A DNA stretch of 64,000 bases from a virus (IMGVR_UViG_3300042888_001115:11067-75066); one strand, 5' to 3'; shown: positions 21,642 through 46,007, counted from the stretch's first letter. A program made the numbers and translations. Notes: a model not told the origin generated them from the sequence alone.

Positions 21642-21962
21642 CTAATTATTCATTTGTAATATTAACTCTATATTGTGTATAAACATATCTTTCCAACGGA
21701 TTTGTGCAATGGTTAATTGTTTTCTACGTTGTGGCTCATTACTATTGTATAAGGTATAGTAGTTATATGATGTATTCGTTCCACCATTTACCTTATTCCT
21801 TTGTAGTATTAGTGATTCATCTACTATCCCTTTATTAGTAGAACGTATATGTATTTGATAATAGTCTTCGTATTCATATACACCTTCTATATTATACCCA
21901 TCAGTTGTAAGGCTTAATACCCTTTCACCTTTCAGTTTACTTCTATTATGTATTATTAGCAT
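21642..21962 (-). CDS. MLxIxN-family small protein
   Basis: N-terminal MLIIHNRSKLKGE. Confidence 0.45.
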   Translation of the reverse strand: MLIIHNRSKLKGERVLSLTTDGYNIEGVYEYEDYYQIHIRSTNKGIVDESLILQRNKVNGGTNTSYNYYTLYNSNEPQRRKQLTIAQIRWKDMFIHNIELILQMNN

Positions 21963-22064
21963 ATCCTTTACTTTATTAGTTTTATTATTTCTATATACAC
22001 TACTATCATTATTAGTGTTATTATCATTACGCTTATAGTTAGTGTTAGTAGTGACATAGTGTTC

Positions 22065-22298
22065 TTATACATTCCTTCCTTCTATACATAAACTACATAG
22101 ACCATCTGAATTTAATCTTATATGATGTTTAGTACAATAATCTATTTCTATACTATGTGTATTATATGTTGTATTATTATCTGAACTACCGCTATTATTT
22201 CCTTTGCCACTCTTTTCTCTTATCCAATTATACATCCAATCGTTTGTGTTATTCACATCAATTATTTTTATATCTTTTTGTGTGTATCTATAATTCAT
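22065..22298 (-). CDS. small Cys/His-containing protein
   Basis: CTKHH...CSLC possible Zn-binding. Confidence 0.35.
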   Translation of the reverse strand: MNYRYTQKDIKIIDVNNTNDWMYNWIREKSGKGNNSGSSDNNTTYNTHSIEIDYCTKHHIRLNSDGLCSLCIEGRNV

Positions 22299-22305
22299 AT
22301 CTTAT

Positions 22306-22461
22306 TTATTTTTTCCATTCACCACTCTTTAATAAGTTTGTTATATAATCCATACTTTGTAATGTAGTAAGGTATACGGGTGCATCATACGTTTTACCTT
22401 TGTATATTACATACGTCGGATGCCATACCATACTACCATTATCTAATTCTAATTTATTCAT
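22306..22461 (-). CDS. small hypothetical protein (51 aa, MNKLELDNGSMVWHPTYV...)
   Basis: ATG ORF not in the track, in the gap between neighbouring ORFs. Confidence 0.3.
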   Translation of the reverse strand: MNKLELDNGSMVWHPTYVIYKGKTYDAPVYLTTLQSMDYITNLLKSGEWKK

Positions 22462-22636
22462 ATTCACTTTCTATTAAATTATTCTTATGAATCCATTTAC
22501 TTAACTCTAAAATTAATTTAACACTCTTATCATCTAATCTTTTACTTTGATTGACTAACCTTTCAATGGATTCTTTACTCAATAGGATGTACTCGTCTAT
22601 ACCATCCATATTACTAACTCTATTTACTATATTCAT
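22454..22636 (-). CDS. small hypothetical protein
   Basis: 60-aa ORF. Confidence 0.35.
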   Translation of the reverse strand: MNIVNRVSNMDGIDEYILLSKESIERLVNQSKRLDDKSVKLILELSKWIHKNNLIESEYE

Positions 22637-22776
22637 ATTATCTACGTTTGATTTGTTTATTGATTATCTTATTAAGGTATATAGTTGATACCCTACTTGC
22701 CTTACCCCTTTGTCTTATACCCCATATTAAATTATTGATTAAGAATATACTCTTTATACTATGTGCTCTATTCATA

Positions 22777-23121
22777 TTAATTATCGTTTTCAATTATTGT
22801 TTTCAATTCCCATATCATACTATCCATCGTATAAATATTTTCTATTCTTATGATATATCGTCTCAATACTCCTATTCCAACTTCAATTAAGTTTATTACA
22901 TATTCATACTCACTTGCTTTGTCCGGCCTTTCCCTTTCAATCTTCATTGTCAATTCCTTACCTTGGTATTTGTATTTGAATGAGAATGGGTCTTCATGCC
23001 TTATAATCATTTCATATGCCGATTTGGTTTCCTTCATCCGCCATACCTTCCATGATTCGGTAAAAGAATGTGTTATAATACGTTCCCCTTTTAATTTATG
23101 ATAGTTTTGTATTGTTAGCAT
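22777..23121 (-). CDS. MLTIxN-family small protein (start trimmed to MLTIQNYHKLKGE)
   Basis: The track's N-terminal extension overlaps the upstream gene; the internal Met restores the family N-terminus and abuts the upstream stop. Confidence 0.45.
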   Translation of the reverse strand: MLTIQNYHKLKGERIITHSFTESWKVWRMKETKSAYEMIIRHEDPFSFKYKYQGKELTMKIERERPDKASEYEYVINLIEVGIGVLRRYIIRIENIYTMDSMIWELKTIIENDN

Positions 23122-23126
23122 AAGGT

Positions 23127-23405
23127 TTATATTATATTTGCCATAAAATGTGTCATAGTAAGTAGAAACTTTTGACAATCCATTACATCCTTTCTTTGTA
23201 CCCACATTTGTTGTCCCTCATACGTCATACAATAGTAATCCCTATGTGGATGGTGCCGTTGTGGTGGGTGTATACGGCTTAGAGTGACCTTATTTAGTGG
23301 GTATCCGTTATCAATCCAAAATACATATGCCCAATTCGTTGTCTCTACCGATATGGTTGCTTTCGTATATAATCTTATCCTATCTATATTATGTATTGTC
23401 AACAT
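23127..23405 (-). CDS. MLTIxN-family small protein
   Basis: MLTIHNIDRIRLY. Confidence 0.5.
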   Translation of the reverse strand: MLTIHNIDRIRLYTKATISVETTNWAYVFWIDNGYPLNKVTLSRIHPPQRHHPHRDYYCMTYEGQQMWVQRKDVMDCQKFLLTMTHFMANII

Positions 23406-23726
23406 TTATATTGTATTTAATATTTTCTCAATTTTATCCCTAAATTTATCCGGTGTACTTAAACTTTCTTTTGTATAGTGATACATCTGGCCGTCAACTT
23501 CAATTCCATAAAAACTACAATCCTTATTTTCAAGAGGATTAAAAACTATCGTTGCCGTTTTATGTAAGGTTATATTTTTTCTTACCAAATGTGGTGGTGC
23601 GACCTCTCTTATTGAGAAATGTGTAACCTCACTTGTAGTATTATCCCAACCTTTGAAATACCATCCTTTGCCTTTTACATTTAATGAATACCCATTTATT
23701 TTATGGATGTTTTTAAGTATTAGCAT
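23406..23726 (-). CDS. MLTIxN-family small protein
   Basis: MLILKNIHKINGY. Confidence 0.5.
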   Translation of the reverse strand: MLILKNIHKINGYSLNVKGKGWYFKGWDNTTSEVTHFSIREVAPPHLVRKNITLHKTATIVFNPLENKDCSFYGIEVDGQMYHYTKESLSTPDKFRDKIEKILNTI

Positions 23727-24030
23727 CTTCGTCTTTTTTTATATTTGCAATTATACAATTCATATAATAGATTAGCCCTACGGGTGATATATCAATAGGG
23801 CGTATTAGGACCTCATATAATTTACCATTACGATTTGTTTTCATTCTATACATGCCCATTACTTCATCCTTATTCCTATCAAATGTAACGTACCATTGTG
23901 TTGATTTGTAATGGCCTACATTAGTTAGTACAAATTGATATTCGGTAGGGGCTTCAATTGCTTCATACACTTCCCACTTATCCGTTATTTGTTTGCCGTT
24001 AATTTTTTCTATGTTTCTTATCTTTAGCAT
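23713..24030 (-). CDS. MLTIxN-family small protein
   Basis: MLKIRNIEKINGK. Confidence 0.5.
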   Translation of the reverse strand: MLKIRNIEKINGKQITDKWEVYEAIEAPTEYQFVLTNVGHYKSTQWYVTFDRNKDEVMGMYRMKTNRNGKLYEVLIRPIDISPVGLIYYMNCIIANIKKDEDANT

Positions 24031-24031
24031 A

Positions 24032-24337
24032 TTATTTCATTATCATTATCATTTCAACCGCTCTTATAAAAGTTTGTTTATTACTTATTTGTTCTACCTT
24101 TAATAACATACTATTAATAGGAGTAGCTTCATTCCATATTATATAACCCTTATCCGTTTTAAATCTATTCAATACAATTTTAATATCACTATACGTTTTA
24201 TTTATATGTCTCAAATGAATATGATATTGTTCGTTACCCTCTTGATTCCAACTCCATGTGTTAAGTACATAATAAACTCCCGTACCACCATCAATTCTTT
24301 GATTGATTAGTGTAAACATATTTTCTATTGTAAGCAT
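24032..24337 (-). CDS. MLTIxN-family small protein (start trimmed to MLTIENM)
   Basis: Family motif at the internal Met. Confidence 0.45.
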   Translation of the reverse strand: MLTIENMFTLINQRIDGGTGVYYVLNTWSWNQEGNEQYHIHLRHINKTYSDIKIVLNRFKTDKGYIIWNEATPINSMLLKVEQISNKQTFIRAVEMIMIMK

Positions 24338-24385
24338 TGTATATATAGTTTTTACTATCAAAAAATTTAGGTAACGACACTTTTT

Positions 24386-24404
24386 CCCCCAACCCCCGCC
24401 CGCG
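24386..24404 (-). repeat. G/C-rich island (gene-sense CGCGGGCGGGGGTTGGGGGG)
   Basis: Followed in gene-sense by GTCGTTACCTAAATTTTTTGATAGT, as in the copy at 26557. Confidence 0.4.
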
Positions 24405-24728
24405 TTATTTACTGAAATTATTTAATTGTCCGCCTAACATTCCCGGAAACATTTTAAAAGATAATAAACCTTTTGTTAGTGTTACATAATCACTGCTTTG
24501 GTCATTATACATTCGCCATTCGTTTAATGTACTACTAAATTCGTTGTATCTTAATAGTTTAAAGTTTACATACTTTGGATGCTTTACACCAAATGTAGTA
24601 CCATAATCAAATCTTACTTTAATACTATAATCATGCTTTCGTTCCTCTATACTCATTACTACCCAATGTGCGTGTGGTGTATGTATTTTATTTCCTTCTA
24701 TCTTTTGTATGTTATCTATTGTTAGCAT
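24405..24728 (-). CDS. MLTIxN-family small protein
   Basis: MLTIDNIQKIEGN. Confidence 0.5.
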   Translation of the reverse strand: MLTIDNIQKIEGNKIHTPHAHWVVMSIEERKHDYSIKVRFDYGTTFGVKHPKYVNFKLLRYNEFSSTLNEWRMYNDQSSDYVTLTKGLLSFKMFPGMLGGQLNNFSK

Positions 24729-24740
24729 ATCATTTTTGTT

Positions 24741-25055
24741 TTAACCTAATGCAACTAATCTTAACTTATCTAAAAACTTATCTATATTACGAATATCTAA
24801 TAGGTTTATATAAAGTACGTGTCCAGTACTACTATGTAATTTATAATCATAGTTACCATCACGTCCCACCTCATCCCTATCTAATGTGACCGTTATTGCC
24901 CATTTTCTATTAGTTAATTCAAATATGTATTTATGGTTTTTTGTAGTGAACATTGGTACATCCATATCAAATTTTTCCTCAACCCTTTCTACATAAAAGT
25001 TTTTCTTACCCAATGTTTTATGTTGTATCTTATTTATGTTTTGTATTCGTAGCAT
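24741..25055 (-). CDS. MLTIxN-family small protein
   Basis: MLRIQNINKIQHK. Confidence 0.5.
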   Translation of the reverse strand: MLRIQNINKIQHKTLGKKNFYVERVEEKFDMDVPMFTTKNHKYIFELTNRKWAITVTLDRDEVGRDGNYDYKLHSSTGHVLYINLLDIRNIDKFLDKLRLVALG

Positions 25056-25058
25056 TAC

Positions 25059-25310
25059 TTATCTTTTTAAGAACCATTTACCAAATTTGAATATCATTTT
25101 GAAAATACCAATTATTAACAGCATAGGTATTATCACAGGCCAAAATATAGAGAATGCAGTAAATGCTTGTTCGTTACTTTCCCAATCATCATACCATCCA
25201 CCCTCACTTGCATATTTATCATAATCAAATCCAATTTTCACTCCAAAGTATTTGAAAAATGTTAGTGTTAAGAAAAATCCTATTATGTATATTGTTATTA
25301 TTGTTATCAT
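25059..25310 (-). CDS. small two-TM membrane protein
   Basis: Two hydrophobic helices flanking an acidic loop, 83 aa. Confidence 0.45.
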   Translation of the reverse strand: MITIITIYIIGFFLTLTFFKYFGVKIGFDYDKYASEGGWYDDWESNEQAFTAFSIFWPVIIPMLLIIGIFKMIFKFGKWFLKR

Positions 25311-25311
25311 A

Positions 25312-25437
25312 TTATTTCTTAGATTTTGATGCTTTAATCAATTTTGATGCTTTAATCAATAGTATTGTTATCCATACTACTGCCGTCAATACACATGCTA
25401 TTTCTACTATCAATGATATCGTTGCTATTGTTTTCAT
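25312..25437 (-). CDS. small single-TM peptide with LIKASK x2 repeat
   Basis: 41-aa ORF; ATG overlaps the uvdE stop (ATGA); repeat encoded by a 17-nt tandem duplication at 25322-25355. Confidence 0.3.
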   Translation of the reverse strand: MKTIATISLIVEIACVLTAVVWITILLIKASKLIKASKSKK

Positions 25438-26306
25438 TTTATGAATTTTAATATTGCTAAATCTTTTTGTTTTGCTTCTACCATTATGTCCACTATGTTA
25501 CCATACGTTTCAGGTATCCTTTCAACAAAATCACTATGTGCCTGTGGCTTACTACCCATCTTACTTTCAGAATAGTGAACTGCCGGCGTTATACCTTTCG
25601 GCCATGTACTCATAGCTAATTCTAATGCATCTTGCTCACTTAAATTTCCGGTATTGAATGTATGATGATGGTAATCAAATACAATAGGTATCTTTATTGC
25701 ATTGTGAATATACATTAAGTCTTTAACTGAATACATACTCGCCTTATCGTCATTCTCAATTGTTAATCTACTCTTTACTGAATCAGATAGTAGTTTAAAA
25801 TTATCTATGAACCTATCCATCGCACTTTGCTTATCCCCATACACTCCGTTACAATGTATATTAATTTTATTGTAAGGTGTTTTACTTAATCCTAATGCAT
25901 CCATTAATCTACCATGTACTTCTAAATCATTTATTGTATTTTGTACTACCGCTTCTTTAGGCGATACTAATACATTGAACGGACCTGGATGAAATGATAA
26001 TCTTTGTCCATACTTTGTTGCTTTATCACCACATCTTTTTAGTATGATTGCAATTTCATTCCAATCTTTTAATTGTTCAAATTGATATTCAGTAGCCCAT
26101 GGCACCATATCGGAACTCATACGATACATTTTAATACCATTCTGCTCATTCCATTCTATAATCCGTTCTAAGTCCGCTACATTTTGTATAACACAATCCG
26201 ATACATAATCCAGTCCCTTTTCTAAAAAAGTTCTCTTAATCATTGTTCGGTTTGTAGTGACCTTTTTACCCAAACTCATATTAATACATGCATATCCTAA
26301 ATTCAT
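25434..26306 (-). CDS. uvdE: UV-damage endonuclease UvdE
   Basis: N-terminal NLGYACIN, IKMYRMSSDMVPWA (UvdE family R-h-S-S-D), about 290 aa TIM-barrel length. Confidence 0.8.
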   Translation of the reverse strand: MNLGYACINMSLGKKVTTNRTMIKRTFLEKGLDYVSDCVIQNVADLERIIEWNEQNGIKMYRMSSDMVPWATEYQFEQLKDWNEIAIILKRCGDKATKYGQRLSFHPGPFNVLVSPKEAVVQNTINDLEVHGRLMDALGLSKTPYNKINIHCNGVYGDKQSAMDRFIDNFKLLSDSVKSRLTIENDDKASMYSVKDLMYIHNAIKIPIVFDYHHHTFNTGNLSEQDALELAMSTWPKGITPAVHYSESKMGSKPQAHSDFVERIPETYGNIVDIMVEAKQKDLAILKFIK

Positions 26307-26476
26307 ACTTTCTTTGTTTTTCGTTTGAGTAATTCAGTTTCTATTTTAGATATTCTACCTTCCATAGAATGTATTTTAAATCTATGTATGAAATTACCTA
26401 ATATTGTTTTAGGTATTCTAGCTTGCTCTGCAATCAATGATGCTTTCATTGCTCTTAGAATTTTTCTTAGTGCCAT
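26303..26476 (-). CDS. small protein, possibly HTH (start trimmed to MALRKIL)
   Basis: The track's N-terminal 17 aa (..IFRIFKYK..) are encoded by the promoter motif; real ATG lies 12 nt after the motif. Confidence 0.35.
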   Translation of the reverse strand: MALRKILRAMKASLIAEQARIPKTILGNFIHRFKIHSMEGRISKIETELLKRKTKKV

Positions 26477-26556: not shown

Positions 26557-26577
26557 AACCCCCGCCCCTTCCCCGCT
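26557..26577 (-). repeat. G/C-rich island (gene-sense GCGGGGAAGGGGCGGGGGTTG)
   Basis: Second copy of the GGGGGTTG...GTCGTT.ACCTAA.TTTTTTGATAGT element. Confidence 0.4.
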
Positions 26578-27052
26578 ACAATTGTTTTAGGTAATTGTTA
26601 CGATACAATTCTTTAAAGTATTGCTCAACACAATATATAAATGCATTTGCATTATCCATATCCTTTGGATGTATTGCATATGAAGGCATTAATGTATTCA
26701 AATCTAATTCTAAATGTAGTGAGTAATAAGGTTGTCCATCTTGATTATATTCTCTTTGTTTATCTAATATTAATCTACAACGATGGTTATATTCATATGA
26801 GTATAACTGAATTTCATAGTAATACGGGATTGATTTACTTTTATCTAATGTCTCACATACATTTTTAATCACATAATCAGTACCGGTTAAATGCACATCC
26901 AATATTCTTTTTACATTTCTTATTTCTAGCATATTATTTTGTTTTATCATTCGGTCATCAAACACACTCATATCACATACATCGCACCAGTCAGTATCAT
27001 CATAGTTAATTGGATTGTTGCATCTAATACAATCATGTACATTCATATCCAT
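26576..27052 (-). CDS. Zn-ribbon N-domain fused to MLxIxN-family domain
   Basis: CIRCNNP...CDVCD, then internal MLEIRNVKRILDV. Confidence 0.45.
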   Translation of the reverse strand: MDMNVHDCIRCNNPINYDDTDWCDVCDMSVFDDRMIKQNNMLEIRNVKRILDVHLTGTDYVIKNVCETLDKSKSIPYYYEIQLYSYEYNHRCRLILDKQREYNQDGQPYYSLHLELDLNTLMPSYAIHPKDMDNANAFIYCVEQYFKELYRNNYLKQL

Positions 27053-27372
27053 TTCATTTTTGATATATCTTGAATAATTGCATTCATATCAGTTGCTACC
27101 CAATTCCAATTCTTTATTAATACCTTATCTATATAACGAGTTTCTGTTGTCCTATAAACGTAACTATTAATTATACCCCACATACCATACTTACCCTCAG
27201 GATTAGCTTCTCTTGCTAAATAGATAGAACACAATGGTATGCAATCCTTATCCCTTATTCTAAATTCATATACCAATTTTTTTTCCTCTACATCATATAT
27301 GGTGCAACGTTCAAACAGGAAAAAATCACTTTCTGTCATTGGGTTACCTATATAATTCTTTATTGTTAGCAT
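27043..27372 (-). CDS. MLTIxN-family small protein
   Basis: MLTIKNYIGNPMT. Confidence 0.5.
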   Translation of the reverse strand: MLTIKNYIGNPMTESDFFLFERCTIYDVEEKKLVYEFRIRDKDCIPLCSIYLAREANPEGKYGMWGIINSYVYRTTETRYIDKVLIKNWNWVATDMNAIIQDISKMKWI

Positions 27373-27373
27373 A

Positions 27374-27670
27374 CTATTTAATTATAAGTTCGGTAATTCG
27401 TTTTATCATTTTCCGCTTTGTATCGATTTTATTCTTTGCTAATAAACTTCGTTGAACATTACCCACACTATCCCAATACCATAATTCATATAATGCGGTT
27501 TCACCTCTACCAATTGGATTTCGTTCTAAGCTCATTTCAAATCCAATGTTATGATTATTAGCTACAACTATTCTATATTGTGTATCGGTTTCCTCAATAC
27601 TATGAATAAACACAGTCGTGTCTCTAATCTTTGTATTTACAATTTCAATATAATTCTTAATTGTTAGCAT
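27374..27670 (-). CDS. MLTIxN-family small protein (start trimmed to MLTIKNYIEIV)
   Basis: Family motif at the internal Met. Confidence 0.45.
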   Translation of the reverse strand: MLTIKNYIEIVNTKIRDTTVFIHSIEETDTQYRIVVANNHNIGFEMSLERNPIGRGETALYELWYWDSVGNVQRSLLAKNKIDTKRKMIKRITELIIK

Positions 27671-27957
27671 ATCAATCCGTTTATACACCTAACTACATAT
27701 CGCATATTTTTTAGTTGGTCTTTTGTTATTGCCATATACTCCGTACCATATGTTAGTATGAACAATCCAATAGGTGTAGGTTTGCGGCTTATAGTACAAT
27801 ATATAAAATAGTTATAACCACGATTATTTATACTGATATGATAATGATTGAGTGAACTTCTAATTTTATTTATAGACCAACCATTCCCTACATCTGATAA
27901 TACAATGTTCTCACTATTTTTTATCGTTATCCGATTTTGTTTCAATGTTGGCTGCAT
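27664..27957 (-). CDS. MLTIxN-family-like small protein
   Basis: RITIKNSENIV after an 8-aa extension; 44-nt overlap with the upstream gene, so the start is uncertain. Confidence 0.4.
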   Translation of the reverse strand: MQPTLKQNRITIKNSENIVLSDVGNGWSINKIRSSLNHYHISINNRGYNYFIYCTISRKPTPIGLFILTYGTEYMAITKDQLKNMRYVVRCINGLIC

Positions 27958-30218: not shown

Positions 30219-31046
30219 TTATAAAATATCGTAATGTGTATTGATATATTGGTATAAAAACTCAGCAAACTTTATGTTGCCGAAATAACCAGGATGTAAA
30301 TCGTTTAATATATCAGCTCCTAATTCATCCTTTATGGTATATCCTTTTTTCATTATCCAATTATGAAAATCAGTATATCCTTCTATATTCAATTCATTTG
30401 ATAATAGTGATTTATCCAAAACTCCTTTTAGTTTTTGTCCACCTTCAAAATATATAAATTTAATTTTATGGTATTTTAAAAATGTCAATAACATCTCTGC
30501 TTCTCTATTCATTTTAGCAACTTCAATATCATATTCAATAAAGTTATCTAAATATTTTTCTAATGCACCATCTTTATTTGCATTTTCAAAATCATTATGA
30601 CATCCATCCATATAATATCCACGTGTTGCGTATATGTGGTCTCTTACCCCATTCTCATTAATCATATGATTTACTATTACCCAACTATTTAAATTTGTTG
30701 AATACATATCTAATCTATGAAAATATGCTGGTAATTCTAATAACAATAGTAACTTATCTTTTTTATCCCAATTTCGTTTTACAAAATCAAAAGCTTCTCT
30801 AACTGCTCTACCAGTTCCGCCACCACTCGCTGCTTTGTTTTCTACCTTACATCCCAACATATCTGCCAATCTACTAGCATATGTAACTTCTAATGTGTTA
30901 TCCCACCATACATTATATTTTTCTTTATAAACATCACGTACTAATGTTACCTTATCATCTGCATATTTAATAGTTTCTAATCCGCCACCCGCACTATGTG
31001 AACATCCGGTTGCAAATACTATTTCTATGTTATGTTTATTTGTCAT
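30219..31046 (-). CDS. SGNH/GDSL-fold hydrolase paralogue (2 of 5)
   Basis: ATGCSHSAGGG, ASGGGTGR, LNDLHPGYFGN. Confidence 0.5.
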   Translation of the reverse strand: MTNKHNIEIVFATGCSHSAGGGLETIKYADDKVTLVRDVYKEKYNVWWDNTLEVTYASRLADMLGCKVENKAASGGGTGRAVREAFDFVKRNWDKKDKLLLLLELPAYFHRLDMYSTNLNSWVIVNHMINENGVRDHIYATRGYYMDGCHNDFENANKDGALEKYLDNFIEYDIEVAKMNREAEMLLTFLKYHKIKFIYFEGGQKLKGVLDKSLLSNELNIEGYTDFHNWIMKKGYTIKDELGADILNDLHPGYFGNIKFAEFLYQYINTHYDIL

Positions 31047-31717: not shown

Positions 31718-32272
31718 TTAGTTATTGGTTGTATCGGTTAAAGGAACTATTGATTGTCTATTTGCATCACCATCACTTATAACTCTGATTGAATTGATTT
31801 CAGCTAAATCCGTTAAAGTGACCTTTTCTATATTAATACCCCACTCTTTAACTTTAGCACCAATTGTTTTTGTTAGTTCAACTTCAATATCAACCAGGTC
31901 TTCCCAATTCCTTTCCTCAATAATTTCTCTAATCATTGCACCGGTTGTATCTACTAATACATCAGTTGGGTGTGCTAACTTAGTTAAGAATAAATATGCA
32001 TCTTCAATATCATATCTAACAATTGCTCTTACTACTATGTTTCTATAATCTAATGATGTGATTGATTGTGGATGTAAATGTATTGATTGTGTTACAACGG
32101 TTTGATGCCATATTGAATCTACAAATGGTATTTTCCAATGTAGACCTGGATCTTTTATATCATTAAACTTACCAAATCTTAACACCAATGCTTTTTCCCA
32201 CATATCCACTACAAATACGGGCATTATTGAATGTCCAAATTGTTGTATTACTGCTATTAATTTATCAAACAT
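31718..32272 (-). CDS. SPFH/band-7 (stomatin/prohibitin-like) domain protein
   Basis: EKALVLRFGKFNDIKDPGLHWKIPFVDSI matches the SPFH N-terminal block. Confidence 0.55.
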   Translation of the reverse strand: MFDKLIAVIQQFGHSIMPVFVVDMWEKALVLRFGKFNDIKDPGLHWKIPFVDSIWHQTVVTQSIHLHPQSITSLDYRNIVVRAIVRYDIEDAYLFLTKLAHPTDVLVDTTGAMIREIIEERNWEDLVDIEVELTKTIGAKVKEWGINIEKVTLTDLAEINSIRVISDGDANRQSIVPLTDTTNN

Positions 32273-34090: not shown

Positions 34091-34802
34091 AATGTTTTAT
34101 TATATAATCTGCCCAAAGTTTATGACCAGGTTCACCAAAGTGTCCATCTGGAATGGTATTGTTTGTTTCTTGTGCTAATGCCATTTTATTATCATACATA
34201 AAAGAACTAAATTTAGTGTATTTATCTGGCATTAAAAATATATTTGCATCATCTACTTCTATTAAATCGTTATCATGTGTCCATACACACACATTATCAC
34301 ATACTGAATTTAATAAATACTTTATTGCTTTAATTTCTCGAATTAATCTATCTTTGAATACTTTATTATTTCTATTTAGTATCACTCCTAATAATCCACT
34401 TTTGCTTAATCCATACATTTCAAATACATCATCCGGTGTTGTTGATATGCTACCTATATTAGTTGGTTGTAATACGTCATTTATTAGTATATCAAATCTT
34501 TCAAAGTAAGATATTCCAATTATAATATAATCATTTTTATTTATATCTTTTATATGTGCAAATACACTATCAAATATCATTTCATTTGATGCACCACCTC
34601 TAGCCGTATTAACTAATTCTAAATTGAAATGGTTAGACACATAATCAGGATAGATTAGAATTTCTTCTCCATCCTGTTTATTTAAATATTTTCTATATGA
34701 AAGTGTGGTCGGTGAATATGGGTTTTCTTTAGGTGAACGAATACACCCATCACCTGCGGTAAAAGAATCACCGAAACACCATAATTTATTTTGTGTAACC
34801 AT
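34077..34802 (-). CDS. SGNH/GDSL-fold hydrolase paralogue (4 of 5)
   Basis: WCFGDSFTAGDG (GDS block), ARGGASN, IPDGHFGEPGHK. Confidence 0.55.
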   Translation of the reverse strand: MVTQNKLWCFGDSFTAGDGCIRSPKENPYSPTTLSYRKYLNKQDGEEILIYPDYVSNHFNLELVNTARGGASNEMIFDSVFAHIKDINKNDYIIIGISYFERFDILINDVLQPTNIGSISTTPDDVFEMYGLSKSGLLGVILNRNNKVFKDRLIREIKAIKYLLNSVCDNVCVWTHDNDLIEVDDANIFLMPDKYTKFSSFMYDNKMALAQETNNTIPDGHFGEPGHKLWADYIIKHFENG

Positions 34803-35121: not shown

Positions 35122-35853
35122 TTACAATGTAACTACACCACGTTTTTGTACAACTTTTGTTGCACAATCATTTGCGTATTCAATACTAACTTCTATACTT
35201 TTTGTTTTTAAATAACTAATTACTAATGAAGCCATAAAGGTATCACCTGCACCACTCAAATCTCTAACCTCAATATCGTTGTTAACCGGATATGTAATAC
35301 CATCATACATTGCACCTCGTTCACTCATTGTTATAATTAATCTTTCTCGCCACATTTCGTATTCCTGTCCTTTACAATTTTCCCACTCAACTTCATTTAT
35401 CTTAATGAATGTATAATTACGCATTTCTGCTGATAATGGTTTCTTTGTATCTATAAAAGTTAATGGATGTGAATCACTAATCAATTTCAAATCTGATAAT
35501 GATAGAAATCCTTTGTCATAATCACTTACAATAACTGCATCATAATCATTGAATGGAACTCTTTTAACATCAAATGAATTGCTAACCTTATCATTACTGT
35601 CAATTCTGATAATCATATGATTTGCTTTTTCCTCTACATATCTAGTCTTTGTAATTTGTTCTTTGTTAGTAACCAACTCAACTTTCTCAGCTCCCAACGA
35701 TTTAAGATTAGCTACTACATTACCACTCATACCCATATTGGTAATTGTTCTACTCGGTTCAAATATTGGCACAGGTCCTTCGGGACATAATCTTTTACAA
35801 TAACCATATACAAATACATCAGTACAACTATCACCGATAACTAAAACTTTCAT
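35122..35853 (-). CDS. pfkB-family sugar kinase, HldE/RfaE domain-I-like (heptose-7-phosphate kinase-like)
   Basis: MKVLVIGDSCTDVFVYG, PEGPVPI, GGNVVANL, YDAVIVSDYDKG, DLSGAGDTFMASL; collinear with the HldE kinase domain. Confidence 0.6.
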   Translation of the reverse strand: MKVLVIGDSCTDVFVYGYCKRLCPEGPVPIFEPSRTITNMGMSGNVVANLKSLGAEKVELVTNKEQITKTRYVEEKANHMIIRIDSNDKVSNSFDVKRVPFNDYDAVIVSDYDKGFLSLSDLKLISDSHPLTFIDTKKPLSAEMRNYTFIKINEVEWENCKGQEYEMWRERLIITMSERGAMYDGITYPVNNDIEVRDLSGAGDTFMASLVISYLKTKSIEVSIEYANDCATKVVQKRGVVTL

Positions 35854-36515
35854 AATAACGATTTCCTATAAGTATTAATATATTCAAAAAAATGATTAGC
35901 CATTCGTTGATGTCCTAACTCATTAAAATGTTTATCAATATTACCATTCGGTTCTATAATATGTTGTTCCTCTAATTGGTCTTGCCACTTTGTATAAAAC
36001 GAATAGTTTGTAAATTCGTTTGTTGAATTGGGTGCCGGAATAAAGTTTATAATTTCTTTATATTTTTTAAAATCTGAATGGGTTTGTCCTTCCGCACTCC
36101 AATAGTAAATTGGTATTTTATTTTTAATGCACCAATCATTTACCTGTTTCTTAAACCATTTGTAATTAACATTTCGCATTTCTATTAAATTATCTGCAAA
36201 TGTTCCATGATGTTTTATAAAGTATGCCTCCAAATCTATTAATTGTGCTTTTGTTGGATAAATATTATACCTATCAAAAAATGTAAATTCAAATACAACC
36301 TTATCACCTGGTTGAATTTCATCTCGCCTATCTATGAATTGCAATATAGATACCCAATTACATTGTCCAGGATGTGCACTATTTACTAATTCTAAATCTA
36401 ATTTATCCGCTAATACATACGGCCAACTAATTCTTAATTTATCTTCATCCAGTGGGTCAACTAAATTCATTCCAGTTGAAAATGAACATCCAAATACCCA
36501 AAGTTTATTTTTCAT
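35850..36515 (-). CDS. SGNH/GDSL-fold hydrolase paralogue (5 of 5; start trimmed to MKNKLWVF)
   Basis: LWVFGCSFSTG, AHPGQCN, DKHFNELGHQ. Confidence 0.5.
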   Translation of the reverse strand: MKNKLWVFGCSFSTGMNLVDPLDEDKLRISWPYVLADKLDLELVNSAHPGQCNWVSILQFIDRRDEIQPGDKVVFEFTFFDRYNIYPTKAQLIDLEAYFIKHHGTFADNLIEMRNVNYKWFKKQVNDWCIKNKIPIYYWSAEGQTHSDFKKYKEIINFIPAPNSTNEFTNYSFYTKWQDQLEEQHIIEPNGNIDKHFNELGHQRMANHFFEYINTYRKSLL

Positions 36516-36519
36516 TATC

Positions 36520-36657
36520 ATTCCAATTTAAAAAATCTTCACCTTTGTAATCGGGATGATTTTCTTTCATATAGTCAATACCTCTTACCCAAAAAAATGA
36601 AACGATTGCAGCCATTATAAAGCTGCAACCGATTCCTATTACATAACTCATTATCAT
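36520..36657 (-). CDS. small TM peptide (MIMSYVIGIGCSFIMAAIVSFFWVRGIDYMKENHPDYKGEDFLNWNDNEK)
   Basis: About 45-aa ORF not in the track; its stop overlaps the downstream ATG. Confidence 0.3.
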
Positions 36658-36660
36658 ATA

Positions 36661-37371
36661 TTATTCTTTTATTTCTATTGAACTCCAATCATTTGTTTCA
36701 CTGTCCCATATCCAAATAGGATTAGCTAATACATAACGAATGTTTAATAACGATGCATTCAAACTTATCATACCTTCTAGCGGCACTTCGGTTTCCTCTT
36801 TAATCATTCCACCACATTCATGTATGTGTCCAAATACGTGGACCTTAGGGTGTATGTCGTTGATTCTATTGGCTAACATTTCACATCCAACATGGTAGTT
36901 GCCTCTTACACTTACATCAAATCTACCATATCTCGGTGTATGTGTCACTAACAAATCTACACTTCCGTCCGTTGGAACTTTTTGCCATACTTCATCTAAC
37001 TCTGCGTTTCTTTGTTTCATAAATGCCCACATACCGAATACAGGAGACCATGGGCTACCATAGATACCTAATCCATCAATGTTTATAAAACTATCTTCTA
37101 AATAGGTAACTCCATAATTGTTTGCTAATAACCAATTACGCCTATCGGTTTGCTGTAACACAAAATCATGATTACCCGCTACTAATACTTTATGTTTTGC
37201 ATTTTGTTTGCTAAACCAATTCATAAATAAATCGGTTTCTTCAAACTCACCATAACGAGTACAATCCCCACTATGCACAATAATATCTACATAGGGTAAC
37301 TCACCATATAATTCAGTAATCTCAAGATGTCTACCATGAGTGTCACTTAAAAACATTATTTTCATAACCAA
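36661..37371 (-). CDS. calcineurin-like metallophosphoesterase
   Basis: FLSDTHGRH, HSGDCT, GNHD, VTHTP, GHIHE motif series. Confidence 0.75.
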   Translation of the reverse strand: MVMKIMFLSDTHGRHLEITELYGELPYVDIIVHSGDCTRYGEFEETDLFMNWFSKQNAKHKVLVAGNHDFVLQQTDRRNWLLANNYGVTYLEDSFINIDGLGIYGSPWSPVFGMWAFMKQRNAELDEVWQKVPTDGSVDLLVTHTPRYGRFDVSVRGNYHVGCEMLANRINDIHPKVHVFGHIHECGGMIKEETEVPLEGMISLNASLLNIRYVLANPIWIWDSETNDWSSIEIKE

Positions 37372-38877: not shown

Positions 38878-40083
38878 TTATTCAAATGTATTTGTTACTA
38901 AATTATATTTCCATCGGTGCACTTTACCATTTACAATTATACCATCTAAATAATAAACATTATCTTTCTGATATAAATTTAATTTAAACATCCATGCTTT
39001 TGAATTGGTTTGATAGGTTGTGATATTGGTTTCTTTGAACGTTTTATAGTTATCAGTTGTTTTATAAACATTTAATTGAAATCCATTATACCAATTAGTG
39101 CCACTATCAATTGTTCTATTTAATAGAATTTCCGTTGTACCATCATTATCAATATCCGCTGCTACAATATCCAATACTAATGCCCATCCATTTGAATTAG
39201 GTTCACAAATAATTGTATTGTTACTAAACTCATTATTGTTATTCCAAAATATAGTAGATTTAGAATATCTATTTGAATTTGGAAATCCCTCAAATCCAGT
39301 CATTATAATATCGGGTTGTGTATCTTTATTTACATCCAATATTTCAATTGTTATATAACCAGAAGTTCCATTATATTTCCAATCAGTTGCATTAAAACTA
39401 CCATCACCACTACCATATAAAACTTTAATATAATTACCTGCGGTTACAACAATATCAATGTTTCCATCTTTATTTAGGTCACCACTTGCACCACCATGCC
39501 AAAACTTTTTGCCAATATCAGGTAATGTTCCTAATTTATATTTGCCTGTTTTTTTGTCACTCAATAACAATGTGTTTGTTTCACCTGGCCAATAATTATT
39601 ATCTTCAAATCCATGATTGATTAAAAATAAATCCGGCAAGCTATCATTATTAAAATCACCTACAATTGTTTTACGGGTGTTTTGATTACCATTATACTCT
39701 AATGGAAGCATACTATTATCTTTTGTATAAGAGTTGCCATTATTAATAAACACATCCGGTTTTGTATTAAATTCACCATCTGAACTATATGGATAAAATA
39801 TGTCTTCTCTACCATCGTTATTCATATCCACATATACAAATCCCAAATTATTAGTTCCATTATATCTACCTATATTTTTAATGCCAAATGTATTTCTAAG
39901 TGAATCAATACTAATAAATTTATTAGTATTTTTTAATTCATATGAGGTTTTGCCATAATATACAATTTTAGGTAATTCCGTTGGTATTATTGGTGTAACT
40001 ACAATTGGTTTAACGATTATTGGTGCAGTTTTAGAACATCCAAATAAGGTCACTACGATTAATGCTAATATAATTTTTTTCAT
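38878..40083 (-). CDS. FG-GAP/VCBS-repeat lipoprotein
   Basis: Lipoprotein signal MKKIILALIVVTLFGCSK; repeated D-x-N-x-D-G motifs (DFNNDSLPDLF, DLNKDGNIDIVV, DIDNDGTTEILL). Confidence 0.55.
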   Translation of the reverse strand: MKKIILALIVVTLFGCSKTAPIIVKPIVVTPIIPTELPKIVYYGKTSYELKNTNKFISIDSLRNTFGIKNIGRYNGTNNLGFVYVDMNNDGREDIFYPYSSDGEFNTKPDVFINNGNSYTKDNSMLPLEYNGNQNTRKTIVGDFNNDSLPDLFLINHGFEDNNYWPGETNTLLLSDKKTGKYKLGTLPDIGKKFWHGGASGDLNKDGNIDIVVTAGNYIKVLYGSGDGSFNATDWKYNGTSGYITIEILDVNKDTQPDIIMTGFEGFPNSNRYSKSTIFWNNNNEFSNNTIICEPNSNGWALVLDIVAADIDNDGTTEILLNRTIDSGTNWYNGFQLNVYKTTDNYKTFKETNITTYQTNSKAWMFKLNLYQKDNVYYLDGIIVNGKVHRWKYNLVTNTFE

Positions 40084-41582: not shown

Positions 41583-41585
41583 AAC

Positions 41586-41891
41586 TTATTTGTTTGTTAT
41601 TATATCGTAATCGTACACTATTTCATTTAAGAATTTAATAAAACTAAATGGGTCAACCAATGTTTTAGAATCTATATCATATCTAATTGATTTACCACCA
41701 TCTACTGCTAATCGTCCTTTAAATTTGTTTTTATCAAATTCATCTCTATCAAGTGTATATGAACAATCATTATCATAATTTTCATGTACAAAATTAAATC
41801 TATAAAAATCAGGTTCAGTTTGTATTTTCTTTATCTCAACCTGCATTGCATTGATTGGATATAACTTATCTATGTTTTTTATTGTTAGCAT
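41586..41891 (-). CDS. MLTIxN-family small protein
   Basis: MLTIKNIDKLYPI. Confidence 0.5.
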   Translation of the reverse strand: MLTIKNIDKLYPINAMQVEIKKIQTEPDFYRFNFVHENYDNDCSYTLDRDEFDKNKFKGRLAVDGGKSIRYDIDSKTLVDPFSFIKFLNEIVYDYDIITNK

Positions 41892-41892
41892 A

Positions 41893-42186
41893 TTATCTTA
41901 CTTTTATTGGTTTTCTATATTTTTCTATTAAATAAATTATATCCGATATCAGTATTGATTTATTTTCCACAATAGTATTGGAAATCTTAAAGTATTTTGT
42001 TGGACTATATCTTATACTATATTTACCCCCATCACGTTCTTTCATCAAGTCAATTCGGAAATATCTATTAATATCCGTATCTAAAACTGCAAATGAATAT
42101 GAATTGGTAAAATCCTTAACTGAATGTATTTTATATTTGCCCAGTACTTCACCTATTACTTTATCTATATTGTGTATCTTTAGCAT
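41893..42186 (-). CDS. MLTIxN-family small protein (start trimmed to MLKIHNIDKV)
   Basis: Internal Met abuts the ligase stop. Confidence 0.45.
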   Translation of the reverse strand: MLKIHNIDKVIGEVLGKYKIHSVKDFTNSYSFAVLDTDINRYFRIDLMKERDGGKYSIRYSPTKYFKISNTIVENKSILISDIIYLIEKYRKPIKVR

Positions 42187-42187
42187 A

Positions 42188-43327: not shown

Positions 43328-43344
43328 TCTCTCGACTCAATACA

Positions 43345-43355
43345 TAAAGATACGA
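43345..43355 (-). promoter_or_regulatory. promoter -7-like motif GTCGTATCTTTATGTATTG
   Basis: Inside copy A, about 28 nt upstream of the first ATG. Confidence 0.4.
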
Positions 43356-43410
43356 CTTTATATTGGATTGGCAATGCCCTAAGTGAACTAATTTTGAAAG
43401 TTTTTATTGG

Positions 43411-43426
43411 GAATCAACGAGTTACG
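43411..43426 (-). promoter_or_regulatory. upstream element ATCAACGAGTTACG (UAS-class motif)
   Basis: Member of the ATCAAYKRGTTASG family, about 60 nt upstream of the -7 motif. Confidence 0.4.
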
Positions 43427-43472
43427 CCAATATAACCCTAACATATTAGGTATTTTTAATATATGATACCTA

Positions 43473-43796
43473 TTATTTAAAATTATAGTTATCCAATTTT
43501 GCCAAACATTTAGTTATCATAACTGCCAAATCGGCTGCACTTCTAACATCTGAATTATCTATTTCGACTTCGGTAGCTGCTGCCCATCCCATAACATATA
43601 GTTTATAATTACCTTGTGGTTTTTTATCTCTGTCTAAATAAACTTCACAATCCGGTTTGCCCGCACCATCATCTTTAAATACAAATACATAAGAATCATA
43701 ATTCATTCTTTGATTATGTAGATTATAAAATTCTTTTATGGTTCGGCTATTACACGTATAACCAACCATTTTTTCTATGTTTTTTATTGTTAGCAT
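43473..43796 (-). CDS. MLTIxN-family small protein
   Basis: MLTIKNIEKMVGY. Confidence 0.5.
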   Translation of the reverse strand: MLTIKNIEKMVGYTCNSRTIKEFYNLHNQRMNYDSYVFVFKDDGAGKPDCEVYLDRDKKPQGNYKLYVMGWAAATEVEIDNSDVRSAADLAVMITKCLAKLDNYNFK

Positions 43797-43797
43797 G

Positions 43798-44073
43798 TTA
43801 TATTAATTCATCTATTAAAAATCGGATAAAGATATCTCTATCCCCTATACTCTCTATTGGTAGGTAGTGTCTATTACCTGTCTCTTGGCAATACATAAGA
43901 TAATCACCATTGGATGTCTTAACCCTACCAATGCTAAAGTTAAACATATCAAAGGGTGAGCCATTATGTACTACTTTAATAAGATAGTTATCCTTCGACT
44001 TAGTCACATAGTGTATCTTCCAATGGCCAACGTATGTCCCCGTAAGAGAATCTATGTTTTTTATTGTAAGCAT
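43798..44073 (-). CDS. MLTIxN-family small protein (start trimmed to MLTIKNIDSL)
   Basis: The track has a duplicated motif, MLNLKNYNMLTIKNIDSL; the internal Met abuts the upstream stop. Confidence 0.45.
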   Translation of the reverse strand: MLTIKNIDSLTGTYVGHWKIHYVTKSKDNYLIKVVHNGSPFDMFNFSIGRVKTSNGDYLMYCQETGNRHYLPIESIGDRDIFIRFLIDELI

Positions 44074-44074
44074 A

Positions 44075-44338
44075 TTATAATTTTTCAAGTTTAGCAATTA
44101 CATCCATTACATCTTCGGGTCTTAAATAACCAAGTACATCATTCGTAATCGGCGTATCGTAACATATTTCACCATCTTTGAAAATAGCTAATTCATACAA
44201 TCCGATATCACCACCATACGAGTGCGGACTTTGTACTACTGATACTTCATATCCATTATCTAATTTAGTTCTACTTACAATACCAAAATCAGCACCCATA
44301 GGGTTTGTTTTAAATTCAATATCTTTAAATGTTTTCAT
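44075..44338 (-). CDS. hypothetical protein
   Basis: 87-aa ORF. Confidence 0.4.
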   Translation of the reverse strand: MKTFKDIEFKTNPMGADFGIVSRTKLDNGYEVSVVQSPHSYGGDIGLYELAIFKDGEICYDTPITNDVLGYLRPEDVMDVIAKLEKL

Positions 44339-44391
44339 AATTTGTTTTATTTAATCTATAAAGGTAGTTAATTTTTCTGATACTACCAAAT

Positions 44392-44742
44392 CTATTTATA
44401 TGCTTTAATAGGTTTAATTTTCATTTGCCAATTATTGTTACCCGCCATTTGGCATATCATATAACCAAACCAATCTTTGTTTTTAATACAATTCAAAGTC
44501 ACTTCGGTTCTTAAATGAGATGCGTGTGTTTGATACATAACATAGTTACCACTATATTTTGCACTACTATCCCTTAATAAAGTAAATCCAATATAATCTT
44601 GTATTGTTCCATTTCCTTTTGTCAATGAAACTGTTATTGCATACTTTTCCGTACCTTCGTTTATATCCTCAATAGATAATGTATAACCATCACATTCAAT
44701 ATAATCACCTTTAAGTTCATTATAGTTTTTAATATTTAACAT
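44392..44742 (-). CDS. MLTIxN-family small protein
   Basis: MLNIKNYNELKGD. Confidence 0.45.
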   Translation of the reverse strand: MLNIKNYNELKGDYIECDGYTLSIEDINEGTEKYAITVSLTKGNGTIQDYIGFTLLRDSSAKYSGNYVMYQTHASHLRTEVTLNCIKNKDWFGYMICQMAGNNNWQMKIKPIKAYK

Positions 44743-44745
44743 ACA

Positions 44746-45273
44746 CTATGGTTTAAGTAGTTTAATATGTTTACACGTTTGTGGTGTTTCTTTACTATAT
44801 TGGTATGCAGGACAAGTACAACTCCAGTCACTCGTACCCAATACATTTTCTGTCACTTGATATAATAAATTAGGACCTGATTGACTTGCTACACTATGTA
44901 TAATTTCGGTTAATGTCATATCAGTCATGCCCATTGTATCAGGTTGTACCACTTCTAAATTAACTTTATTTGCCACATCATACATACTATCGATAACAAA
45001 TTCCTTAAATCGTTCTATTGTTAGAATTGAATCTTTTACGATAGGTATATTTTCATGTATATACCAACCATCCATACCATCACCGATTGCACATATTTTA
45101 ACATTATATTGGTTTTTATCCCAATTCATTTCAAACAATACACAATTACTCCAACTTCCGTCGTGTACTTGTTGAACAAAGAATCCCTCTTTACATACAT
45201 CAATTTCAATTTCAGTATTTCCAAATTTAATTTTTTCGTTATCTACTTTGTGAAAGTTTTCTGGCTTTTTCAT
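44746..45273 (-). CDS. SWIM zinc-finger protein
   Basis: C-terminal WSCTCPAYQYSKETPQTCKHI (CxCx12CxH). Confidence 0.55.
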   Translation of the reverse strand: MKKPENFHKVDNEKIKFGNTEIEIDVCKEGFFVQQVHDGSWSNCVLFEMNWDKNQYNVKICAIGDGMDGWYIHENIPIVKDSILTIERFKEFVIDSMYDVANKVNLEVVQPDTMGMTDMTLTEIIHSVASQSGPNLLYQVTENVLGTSDWSCTCPAYQYSKETPQTCKHIKLLKP

Positions 45274-45674
45274 ATTTTATAAATTTTAATTTTTGTTAAT
45301 TTAGTTTGTTTATCGTTTGCTCCAATTAATATATCAATTCGTTTCTTATATCGTTTGTTCATTACATCGTGAACTCTATATGTACCATCATATTTACCGG
45401 CACCAACAATTCTAATCTTTTGTCCAAACTTATATTTCTTTTTTAAATCTCTACTAACTGCAATAATTCTATGTTTCTTTGGATTAGTAATCTTAAATCC
45501 ACTCGCAGTTATATTTGGTGTACTATCCGTTTCGGCTGCATTTGCTTTATATGTGGTTAGTGTCACTATTTCGGGAGTAATCGTTTCAATCATTGTGTTG
45601 ATTCTTAATTCCTCTCGTTCCATTTCGTAAGGTAAACATACCATTGCGATTGCTAGTATTATATTGTAATTCAT
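45270..45674 (-). CDS. 3D-domain (MltA-like) cell-wall-binding/lytic protein with signal peptide
   Basis: N-terminal hydrophobic leader; HRIIAVSRDLKKKYKFGQKIRIVGAGKYDGTYRVHDVMNKRYKKRIDIL matches the 3D-domain pattern with conserved Asp positions. Confidence 0.55.
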   Translation of the reverse strand: MNYNIILAIAMVCLPYEMEREELRINTMIETITPEIVTLTTYKANAAETDSTPNITASGFKITNPKKHRIIAVSRDLKKKYKFGQKIRIVGAGKYDGTYRVHDVMNKRYKKRIDILIGANDKQTKLTKIKIYKI

Positions 45675-45677
45675 AAC

Positions 45678-46007
45678 TTATAATAATTTAGGTGTCCATT
45701 CATCCGTTAGTAATTTAAGTTTGTCCATTAGACTATCCATATTGACAATATCTTCATGCTTTATCCAATAGGGATATCTTACACAATATGCTTCATTACT
45801 CCATTTTCCAATTGTATAATAACCATCCGATATAGCTGATGGGTTAAGTTCTACCGGCCTTCTATTTAATATAATGATATGTCTCATATTACCTCGCCAT
45901 ACATTAATTCTATATTCATCTCTCCTTTCATCAATATCCTCAATGTAGTTTTTATCATCCCATTCTTTACGGAATAGTTTTTCAAAGTTCTTAATTGTTA
46001 GTTTCAT
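45678..46007 (-). CDS. MLTIxN-family small protein (start trimmed to MKLTIKNFEKL)
   Basis: Family motif after the internal Met. Confidence 0.45.
   Translation of the reverse strand: MKLTIKNFEKLFRKEWDDKNYIEDIDERRDEYRINVWRGNMRHIIILNRRPVELNPSAISDGYYTIGKWSNEAYCVRYPYWIKHEDIVNMDSLMDKLKLLTDEWTPKLL

Follow-up and report, generated by a model that had tools for sequence, protein, structure and literature searches.

In the hyperplastic regions of T4-type phages, the gain and loss of small genes is mediated by intergenic cassettes that consist of a promoter and a stem-loop (PeSLs; Arbiol et al., 2010, PMC2839356; PMC4122927), and elements analogous to PeSLs occur in the internal protein (IP) loci of T-even phages, according to Repoila et al. 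(1994) as cited in these papers (PMC2839356/PMC4122927). The T4 internal proteins carry a different repeated element, the capsid-targeting sequence (CTS), which in IPIII comprises the first 10 residues, where targeting relies chiefly on positions 4 and 7 and processing on positions 8 and 10 (PMC9026906, PMC3012670). The protease gp21 cleaves after Glu in L/I-x-E (PMC9026906), and the cargo proteins that carry the CTS are mutually unrelated (PMC9026906, PMC3012670). Here we analyse a locus that has features in common with both systems, in a 64,000-nt stretch of a large uncultured phage (IMGVR_UViG_3300042888_001115:11067-75066; hereafter the window, whose positions serve as coordinates), where 18 small genes begin with variants of the sequence MLTIKN.

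The original prediction, made from the DNA of the window, had read this shared N-terminal decapeptide as a T4-like tag on otherwise unrelated, injected cargo. The likeness to IPI, IPII, IPIII and Alt of T4 is that small accessory proteins of a large phage have in common an N-terminal peptide of ∼10 residues, conserved also in the DNA, and that T4 internal protein loci likewise vary between relatives (PMC3012670, PMC9026906, PMC12373910). However, T4 cargo is unrelated, whereas here the whole proteins are homologous; and the T4 tag ends in L/I-x-E and is removed, whereas the present proteins have no conserved site of this kind, and their motif is confidently predicted to belong to the domain and lies internally in some members. 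With PeSL and IP-locus shuffling the locus shares a short conserved DNA block that is repeated beside small non-essential genes, and close relatives that differ by whole-gene insertions, deletions and replacements joined in the repeated block. PeSLs, however, lie between genes, combine a promoter with a terminator and flank unrelated ORFans, whereas the present block occupies the first 12–21 coding nt in each of a set of paralogues and contains no promoter or hairpin. Promoter-like sites were not enriched in a sigma-70 scan (45 found, 58.6 in shuffles), and one terminator-like hairpin was found in 21–29 kb.

Large DNA viruses also have tandem multigene families that evolve by unequal crossing-over and by birth-and-death, as exemplified by the multigene families (MGF) of African swine fever virus. 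These resemble the present family in that their numerous tandem paralogues have diverged, close strains differ in copy number and the most conserved segment is near the N-terminus. They differ in the domain of life of the host and have no sequence relationship to the phage proteins; here the genes belong to a phage and lie in polycistronic coupled arrays, and the frozen block is just ∼12–21 nt long. Homologous units, in-register copy-number variation and a synonymously uniform segment, by which a tandem paralogous family with unequal crossing-over is recognized, were all found at this locus.

Homology of the 18 proteins

The window has a G+C content of 30%, and from 20 to 48 kb all confidently called genes lie on the minus strand. 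A profile hidden Markov model (HMM) built from the family members and run against the six-frame set of open reading frames (ORFs) of the window recovered exactly 18 ORFs, each in minus orientation, at E-values from 1e-26 to 3.5e-17, with no further match at E<=10. This agrees with the at least 18 ORFs with an MLTIKN-type start that had been noticed originally, as do the coordinates of the arrays in which they lie (Table 1). The first array (21642-25055) has eight members and is broken up by four small ORFs from outside the family (22065-22793). The arrays at 26576-27957, 41586-42186 and 43473-44742 have four, two and three members, respectively, the last with a non-family ORF (44075-44338) between its members; one copy stands alone. 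Copy density is thus 18 in 25 kb of the window, and reaches 16 per related locus (∼9 kb). The arrays are tight, most copies starting 1–3 nt past the preceding stop codon (stop-N-ATG coupling). The isoelectric points of the proteins range from 5.1 to 9.7.

The residues that follow the decapeptide, some 90 in each protein, had been described as unrelated. In a tagless test, the first 12 residues (MLTIKN plus six) were cut from each protein, a profile was built from 17 bodies and the 18th was sought among 680 decoys, comprising 480 other ORFs of the window and 200 shuffles of the left-out body. In 17 of the 18 cases the left-out body ranked top, above all 680 decoys, with E-values of 1.3e-11 to 3.3e-3, while the best decoys scored about 0.01–0.3. 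The 18th body (23406-23726) was recovered by profile–profile comparison, in which its tagless orthologue group aligned with the tagless family at 91% probability (hhalign, E 9.6e-7, 78 columns). Two ORFs among the decoys, at 13665-14012 and 12096-12926 (minus strand), recurred at E ∼0.1 in the tagless searches and were dropped as candidates, as the full profile did not match them at E<=10.

In an alignment of 150 members, conservation runs through the whole domain and does not stop after the decapeptide. The N-terminal block (L2 97%, I4 99%, N6 98%) is the longest conserved run, yet other conserved positions are spread along the chain: Y30 (99%), R50 (91%, with K in another 7%), Y58 (87%), L48 (86%), E25 (61%), an aromatic residue at 18, I/V20, I/F32, G56 and F82. 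Pairwise identity of the member bodies is 12–27%. Since homology extends from end to end of the proteins, the reading as a T4-like tag fails on the very point that the original prediction had named as decisive. Judged by these profile comparisons, the 18 genes all encode versions of a single protein domain that have diverged from one another, rather than unrelated proteins with a common packaging tag, and MLTIKN forms the first conserved segment of that domain and is probably not a detachable tag. The 18 ORFs, their coordinates, the DNA conservation of their starts and a Zn ribbon in one of them therefore stand as originally described, while the ‘unrelated’ remainder does not.

Structure prediction is consistent with this conclusion. 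The AlphaFold2 model of 43798-44073 consists of one confident domain, with a mean predicted local distance difference test score (pLDDT) of 90.3 and a predicted template modelling score (pTM) of 0.80; it contains an N-terminal extended segment, a one-turn helix (residues 7–10), a five-stranded antiparallel sheet and a C-terminal helix. Residues 1–10 have a pLDDT of 88, so that this segment is predicted to be ordered. The succession L-x-I-x-N, then I-x-K-L/I, then G would fit a buried strand, a helix cap and a turn. In the Zn-ribbon copy, the CxxC...CxxC pattern is present as originally described, and its four Cys are retained in orthologue P0155; AlphaFold predicts residues 41–158 with confidence, with the order of helices and strands as in 43798-44073 and a pLDDT of 90 in the internal motif block, while the extension itself is poorly predicted. 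The motif is also internal, with no Met before it, in ∼10 cluster representatives from database searches (e.g. SLLTIEN at residue 52, KYLTIKN at 50), and 11 begin with MKLTIKN. A Foldseek search of the predicted fold found no specific relative (best E 0.2 in BFVD, 0.7 in PDB).

The start block and gene turnover in the arrays

Conservation of the gene starts at the nucleotide level, as noticed originally, is evident in the window. The plus-strand 12-mer TATTGTTAGCAT (gene sense ATG CTA ACA ATA) has 35 matches at <=2 mismatches, compared with 18.5 ± 4.8 in shuffles, none of 100 reaching 35; five exact copies stand at member starts. Leu2 is encoded by CTA in 13 of 17 window members, whereas CTA makes up 9.2% of Leu codons in the long ORFs of the window (p=6e-11), and ACA, ATA and AAC are over-used as codons 3, 4 and 6. 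Related arrays were gathered by exact-protein look-up and a DNA-pattern scan (L001-L006, L008, L009, L018, L019, L021, L028, L030 and L031), giving 106 distinct members together with the window. Most copies, both in the window and in 12 related loci, begin with the block ATGCTAACAATA(..AAC ATA), and in the 106 members CTA is used for L2 in 71 of 95, ACA for T3 in 77 of 81, ATA for I4 in 89 of 102 and AAC for N6 in 59 of 103. Conserved residues of the body, in contrast, have background codons (L48: TTA 39, TTG 28, CTA 13; R50: AGA 54, AGG 27; Y30: TAT 85, TAC 16), which indicates that shared ancestry alone does not preserve codons in this family.

The codon choice depends on contact with the start codon. 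CTN and TTR occur in a ratio of 79:7 when Leu is codon 2 and of 1:8 when at least one codon precedes it (Fisher p=4e-7, on counts that are not phylogenetically independent). In orthologues, synonymous divergence (pS) is 0.16 in the tag and 0.31 in the body, with too few sites for significance. There are no tRNA genes in the window, and hence no window-encoded phage tRNA-Leu(UAG) that would explain the use of CTA. The conservation of the start block in DNA exceeds what the peptide requires.

Comparison of close relatives revealed where whole genes have been gained or lost. Contigs L003 and L004, from different samples, are 93–100% identical across the array, with most blocks at 98–100%, and differ within it by gene-sized insertions or deletions (indels) of 326, 337, 344 and 384 nt. 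The two junctions lie at +15/+15 from the family ATG for the 326 nt indel, at -5/-5 for 337 nt and at 0/0 for 344 nt. Similarly, L028 and L031 differ by a 331-nt unit with junctions at +18/+18, L009 and L030 by a 643-nt two-gene unit at -2/-2, and the window has, relative to the syntenic L001, an extra gene of 277 nt whose junctions fall exactly at two ATGs. In six of these seven whole-gene indels, therefore, both junctions have the same offset (-5 to +18) from the family ATG. Two of the six have junctions inside the ORF and yield in-frame chimeras; the L003 gene at 10643 consists of the first 21 nt of one L004 copy joined to the remainder of the next. The seventh indel (384 nt) is bounded by two ATGCTAACA starts, the left one belonging to a non-family gene. 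The arrangements of L003 and L004 were each assembled from more than one sample, and the repeat is shorter than usual assembly k-mers, which makes misassembly unlikely.

The 384-nt unit, missing from the near-identical L003, contains a gene of 126 aa (L004 12574-12954) that begins ATGCTAACA (MLT...). No family, Pfam or HMM match was found for it, and it has the appearance of a gene of foreign origin whose first three codons are those of the tag.

These comparisons support the view that the near-identical first codons mark the places where whole gene copies are gained and lost between close relatives. They also support one of the alternatives offered by the original prediction, namely that the block is a handle by which recombination or gene conversion diversifies a family, given that six of seven indels are in register at the 5' block and the seventh lies between two ATGCTAACA starts. 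We consider it probable that the locus is a lineage-specific expansion of one ∼95-residue domain in coupled tandem arrays, in which the frozen 5' block is the site where copies pair and recombine. According to this explanation, one domain would have been multiplied, in accessory regions of an uncultured phage lineage, as stop-N-ATG coupled genes; the first 12–21 nt (ATG CTA ACA ATA ..AAC ATA), frozen at synonymous sites, would serve as the pairing block; and unequal crossovers that join the 5' blocks of two different copies in register would add, delete or hybridize whole genes. Each crossover overwrites the 5' end of one copy with that of another, so that the block would stay uniform.

Several observations weigh against this explanation. 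Exact homology in the tag is short: the identical 5' prefix among window copies has a median of 6 nt and a maximum of 23 nt, reaching at least 12 nt in 12 of 120 pairs, and crossovers would thus operate at the scale of microhomology. The window insertion 41586-42186, between the stop of a ligase gene and the start of a HAD gene, joins at AATAA microhomology and not at the tag. The indel events number only seven, from few related genome pairs, and the codon counts carry the phylogenetic dependence mentioned above. Moreover, only in-register indels leave intact genes in a coupled array, so survivorship can mimic a preference for junctions at the ATG, a concern that applies less to the two chimeras with junctions inside the ORF. 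Finally, recombination as the cause of codon freezing is not separated by these data from recombination as its effect, and freezing by recombination would be the interpretation rather than the observation.

A family-specific translational control offers a different account, which we regard as possible but rather unlikely. The frozen AUGCUAACAAUA block would be an RNA operator over the start codon, through which a phage or host factor, comparable to T4 RegA, would regulate all copies jointly, or else a re-initiation signal for the coupled stop-N-AUG genes. Consistent with this, codons are frozen only where the tag directly adjoins the ATG, and most copies begin 1–3 nt past the previous stop. 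Initiation in this phage also appears to make little use of Shine-Dalgarno motifs, which precede 9 of 112 minus-strand genes of the window; instead the upstream sequence is rich in A at -11 to -13 (up to 77%) and at -3, where A or G is found in 79%. This Kozak-like context resembles initiation without Shine-Dalgarno motifs in Bacteroidota, and may hint at a Bacteroidota-type host. Nevertheless, the block does not reflect a general initiation optimum, because position +4 is A in 63 of 94 non-family genes and C in just 2 of 94, and three of the four non-family genes that have Leu as second codon encode it by TTR; the shared translation-initiation region that had been named as an alternative is disfavoured to that extent. 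No regulator or RNA structure was identified, and the coincidence of indel junctions with the block is left unexplained by translational control. The two explanations, control of translation and recombination at the block, are compatible with each other.

It is quite unlikely that avoidance of restriction sites explains the codon choice. The sequence ATG TTR ACA would create GTTRAC, a HincII/HpaI-type palindrome, and its avoidance would push Leu2 to CTN between ATG and ACA, which would account for the dependence of CTA on contact with ATG. In 150 kb of the phage group (the window and related loci), GTTAAC occurs 15 times (28 expected) and GTTGAC 3 times (10 expected), and palindrome avoidance is strong generally, with GAATTC at 14 (61 expected) and CTATAG at 2 (30 expected). 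But the depletion of GTTRAC is only moderate by comparison, and the palindrome is present in four of the seven members that have TTR at codon 2. Such avoidance explains neither why CTA is preferred over CTT (70:6, against a background of ∼1:0.75) nor why ACA, ATA and AAC are over-represented as codons 3, 4 and 6. It may contribute in part to the choice of CTA. Further palindromes are avoided in the same 150 kb (GTATAC 18, 52 expected; GGTACC 2, 17 expected), and the avoidance of 6-bp palindromes suggests pressure from host restriction systems.

That the N-terminal decapeptide directs entry into the prohead and is cut by a prohead protease, the proteins being injected as early effectors, now appears very unlikely. 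The motif is N-terminal and the most conserved block, and several accessory genes of the phage are of T4-superfamily type (DNA ligase, T4 RNA ligase 1, GP88, Kyano_Gp96). Furthermore, phiKZ-like phages have paralogous families of cleaved head proteins, so body homology alone does not exclude packaging. Nevertheless, the unrelated cargo that defines the T4 system is missing, since the bodies are homologous without the tag. The cleavage motif [LI]xE with Glu at position <=20 is found in 16 of 165 members, at scattered positions, and no conserved Glu follows the motif; at position 8, E occurs in 21% of the members, and the N at position 6 is invariant. The motif is predicted with confidence as part of the domain in both AlphaFold models (pLDDT 88–90), is internal without a preceding Met in several members and stands behind a Zn ribbon in one. 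Copies of the T4-type late promoter TATAAATA are no commoner in sense (6) than in antisense orientation (7), and none of the arrays has one upstream. No structural or protease gene was found among the window genes scanned, which have accessory functions only (UvdE, SPFH protein, HAD domain, DNA ligase, CobS-like AAA, GP88, sugar epimerase).

The idea that the 5' identity is a leftover of recent duplication, free of special constraint, fits the tandem arrangement but deserves next to no credence, as the bodies are just 12–27% identical, the codons of conserved body residues are randomized to background and each copy has its own orthologues in other contigs (62–95% identity), so that the duplications are old and the tag codons fixed.

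Relatives and genomic setting

A search of 1.84 billion cluster representatives (clustered at 50% identity) gave at least 455 clusters that match the family at E<=1e-3. Among the 150 clusters listed, nearly all are 90–115 residues long and match over the full length of the profile, and the matches found place the family solely on contigs of uncultured phages, of up to ∼250 kb. In Pfam, PHROGs, NCBIfam, PADLOC and PDB sequences the 18 members had no match above the curated threshold, and no family in these libraries was matched by more than one of them. A tblastn search with two members found no match in 50,697 deposited phage genomes, and the string MLTIKN does not occur in the papers searched. 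The 18-mer DNA pattern matched 71 times in 596 Gb of bacterial and archaeal genomes, in no case with a family member; these are chance matches and give no clue to the host. On the evidence of these searches, this is a previously undescribed expanded phage protein family.

Nine of the window copies have orthologues in other loci, at 62–92% identity, and the ratio of non-synonymous to synonymous substitution rates (dN/dS) of their bodies is 0.17–0.84, mostly 0.2–0.45. These identities and low ratios indicate that the duplications are old and that each copy has been kept by selection; by this measure the copies are functional genes under purifying selection.

Table 1. Family members in the window, in order of position (HMM, family profile; tagless, profile lacking the first 12 residues)
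Position	Strand	Length (aa)	Start or motif	Remarks	Evidence
21642..21962	-	106	MLIIHNRSKL		HMM E 1e-23; tagless leave-one-out E 1.3e-11
22777..23121	-	114	MLTIQNYHKL	Most abundant orthologue group in metagenomes	HMMs; exact 12-mer at 23110-23121
23127..23405	-	92	MLTIHNIDRI	Leu2 = TTG	Full and tagless HMM
23406..23726	-	106	MLILKNIHKI	Most divergent body	Full HMM E 8e-23; tagless HMM ambiguous; tagless profile–profile 91%
23713..24030	-	105	MLKIRNIEKI		Full and tagless HMM
24032..24337	-	101	MLTIENMFTL	Orthologues P0009 and P0087 begin at same Met	Full and tagless HMM
24405..24728	-	107	MLTIDNIQKI		12-mer scan, full and tagless HMM
24741..25055	-	104	MLRIQNINKI		Full and tagless HMM
26576..27052	-	158	MLEIRN from residue 41 (nt 26932)	N-terminal CxxC...CxxC Zn-ribbon extension	HMMs
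27043..27372	-	109	MLTIKNYIGN		12-mer scan, full and tagless HMM
27374..27670	-	98	MLTIKNYIEI	Orthologue P0144	Full and tagless HMM
27664..27957	-	97	MQPTLKQNRITIKN	8-residue N-terminal extension, no Met in front of motif; orthologue P0153 with identical start	HMMs
41586..41891	-	101	MLTIKNIDKL	Missing from syntenic L001	12-mer scan, HMMs, L001 comparison
41893..42186	-	97	MLKIHNIDKV	Start coupled to DNA-ligase stop (TAA-T-ATG); missing from L001	HMMs
43473..43796	-	107	MLTIKNIEKM	Orthologues P0001 (95%) and P0080	12-mer scan, HMMs
43798..44073	-	91	MLTIKNIDSL	First AlphaFold target; 277-nt cassette missing from L001, both junctions at ATG	HMMs
44392..44742	-	116	MLNIKNYNEL	Leu2 = TTA	Full and tagless HMM
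45678..46007	-	109	MKLTIKNFEKL	Single member; one residue precedes motif; L001 orthologue at 8089 has TTA for Leu	HMMs

Related contigs reach 249–297 kb. The DNA ligase encoded beside the family is 47% identical to that of an uncultured 595-kb phage and 44% identical to that of the T4-like Cr30; other neighbouring genes encode T4 RNA ligase 1, Cpn10, GP88 and Kyano_Gp96, and the CobS-like protein is closest to those of another huge uncultured phage and a Microcystis phage. As there is no close cultured relative, a T4-like classification is only suggestive.

Several features near the arrays deserve mention, the genes among them all being on the minus strand. A T5orf172 (GIY-YIG-related) protein is encoded immediately downstream of the first array (21128-21610, Pfam E 1.3e-5), possibly a nuclease or mobile-element gene beside a recombining array, to judge from its domain match. 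Two accessory genes unusual for a phage encode the UV-damage endonuclease UvdE, between the first two arrays (25434-26306, Pfam E 1e-64), and an SPFH/Band-7 protein (31718-32272, E 5e-22). An ORF of HExxH metallopeptidase type with weak M48/M78 matches (45991-46368) ends where the single member begins, and its L001 orthologue has a weak Peptidase_U49 (Lit-like) mark. Small ORFs that end in SWIM-type zinc fingers are interleaved with the members at 44746-45273 and 47439-47777 (Pfam SWIM E 6e-4 and 2.5e-4, respectively, just above the cut-off). A hairpin, AGGTATcatatattaaaaATACCT, lies in the 143-nt spacer (43329-43471) between member 43473-43796 and the DNA ligase gene, where L001 has few bases, and a terminator-like hairpin with a T-run directly follows the Zn-ribbon member (26561-26537, minus strand).

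The window also contains a second paralogous set of four ORFs of 220–275 aa (30219-31046, 33296-34090, 34077-34802 and 35850-36521, minus strand), which have in common an N-terminal FG(C/D)S(F/H)(S/T)xG motif; only 34077-34802 comes near the cut-off of Pfam Lipase_GDSL (E 8e-5, 23.2 bits vs 23.6). Alongside are genes for a PfkB kinase (35122-35853), a metallophosphoesterase (36661-37371) and an FG-GAP lipoprotein (38878-40083). By their annotation, this set and its neighbours may form a sugar or cell-surface modification cluster.

Possible function and significance of the family

The domain would combine a conserved core and the polar residues N6, Y30, R50 and Y58 with highly variable surfaces. 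Our most likely guess, based on copy number, diversity and type of fold, is that the products are variable-surface binding proteins that would act inside the infected cell against variable host targets, for host takeover or counter-defence.

Recombination at the start block invites comparison with integrons. As with integron cassettes, promoterless single-gene units appear to be gained and lost unit by unit at a short repeated site; unlike in integrons, no integrase or structured attC-like site was identified here, the site lies inside the ORF and the cassettes are mutually homologous. Carried further, the analogy would make the start block (12–21 nt) a selected cassette-exchange site, through which co-infecting phages of this lineage would swap, gain and lose members of a pool of >450 variants of one binding domain and occasionally capture a foreign gene. 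We think this unlikely. If such exchange takes place, the T5orf172 nuclease-type gene could initiate it.

One caution that follows from the analysis is that an N-terminal peptide common to small phage proteins should not be equated with a packaging signal before the bodies have been compared by profile methods. Phages rarely keep many paralogues, and the 18 copies in the window and at least 455 clusters point to strong diversifying pressure on a small domain, for which an arms race with host factors is the likeliest source. Recombination at the start block would provide a natural example of microhomology within coding sequence organizing the turnover of gene cassettes in a virus, and would extend the idea developed for PeSLs and IP loci, which concerns regulatory cassettes between genes, to the opening codons of coding sequences.

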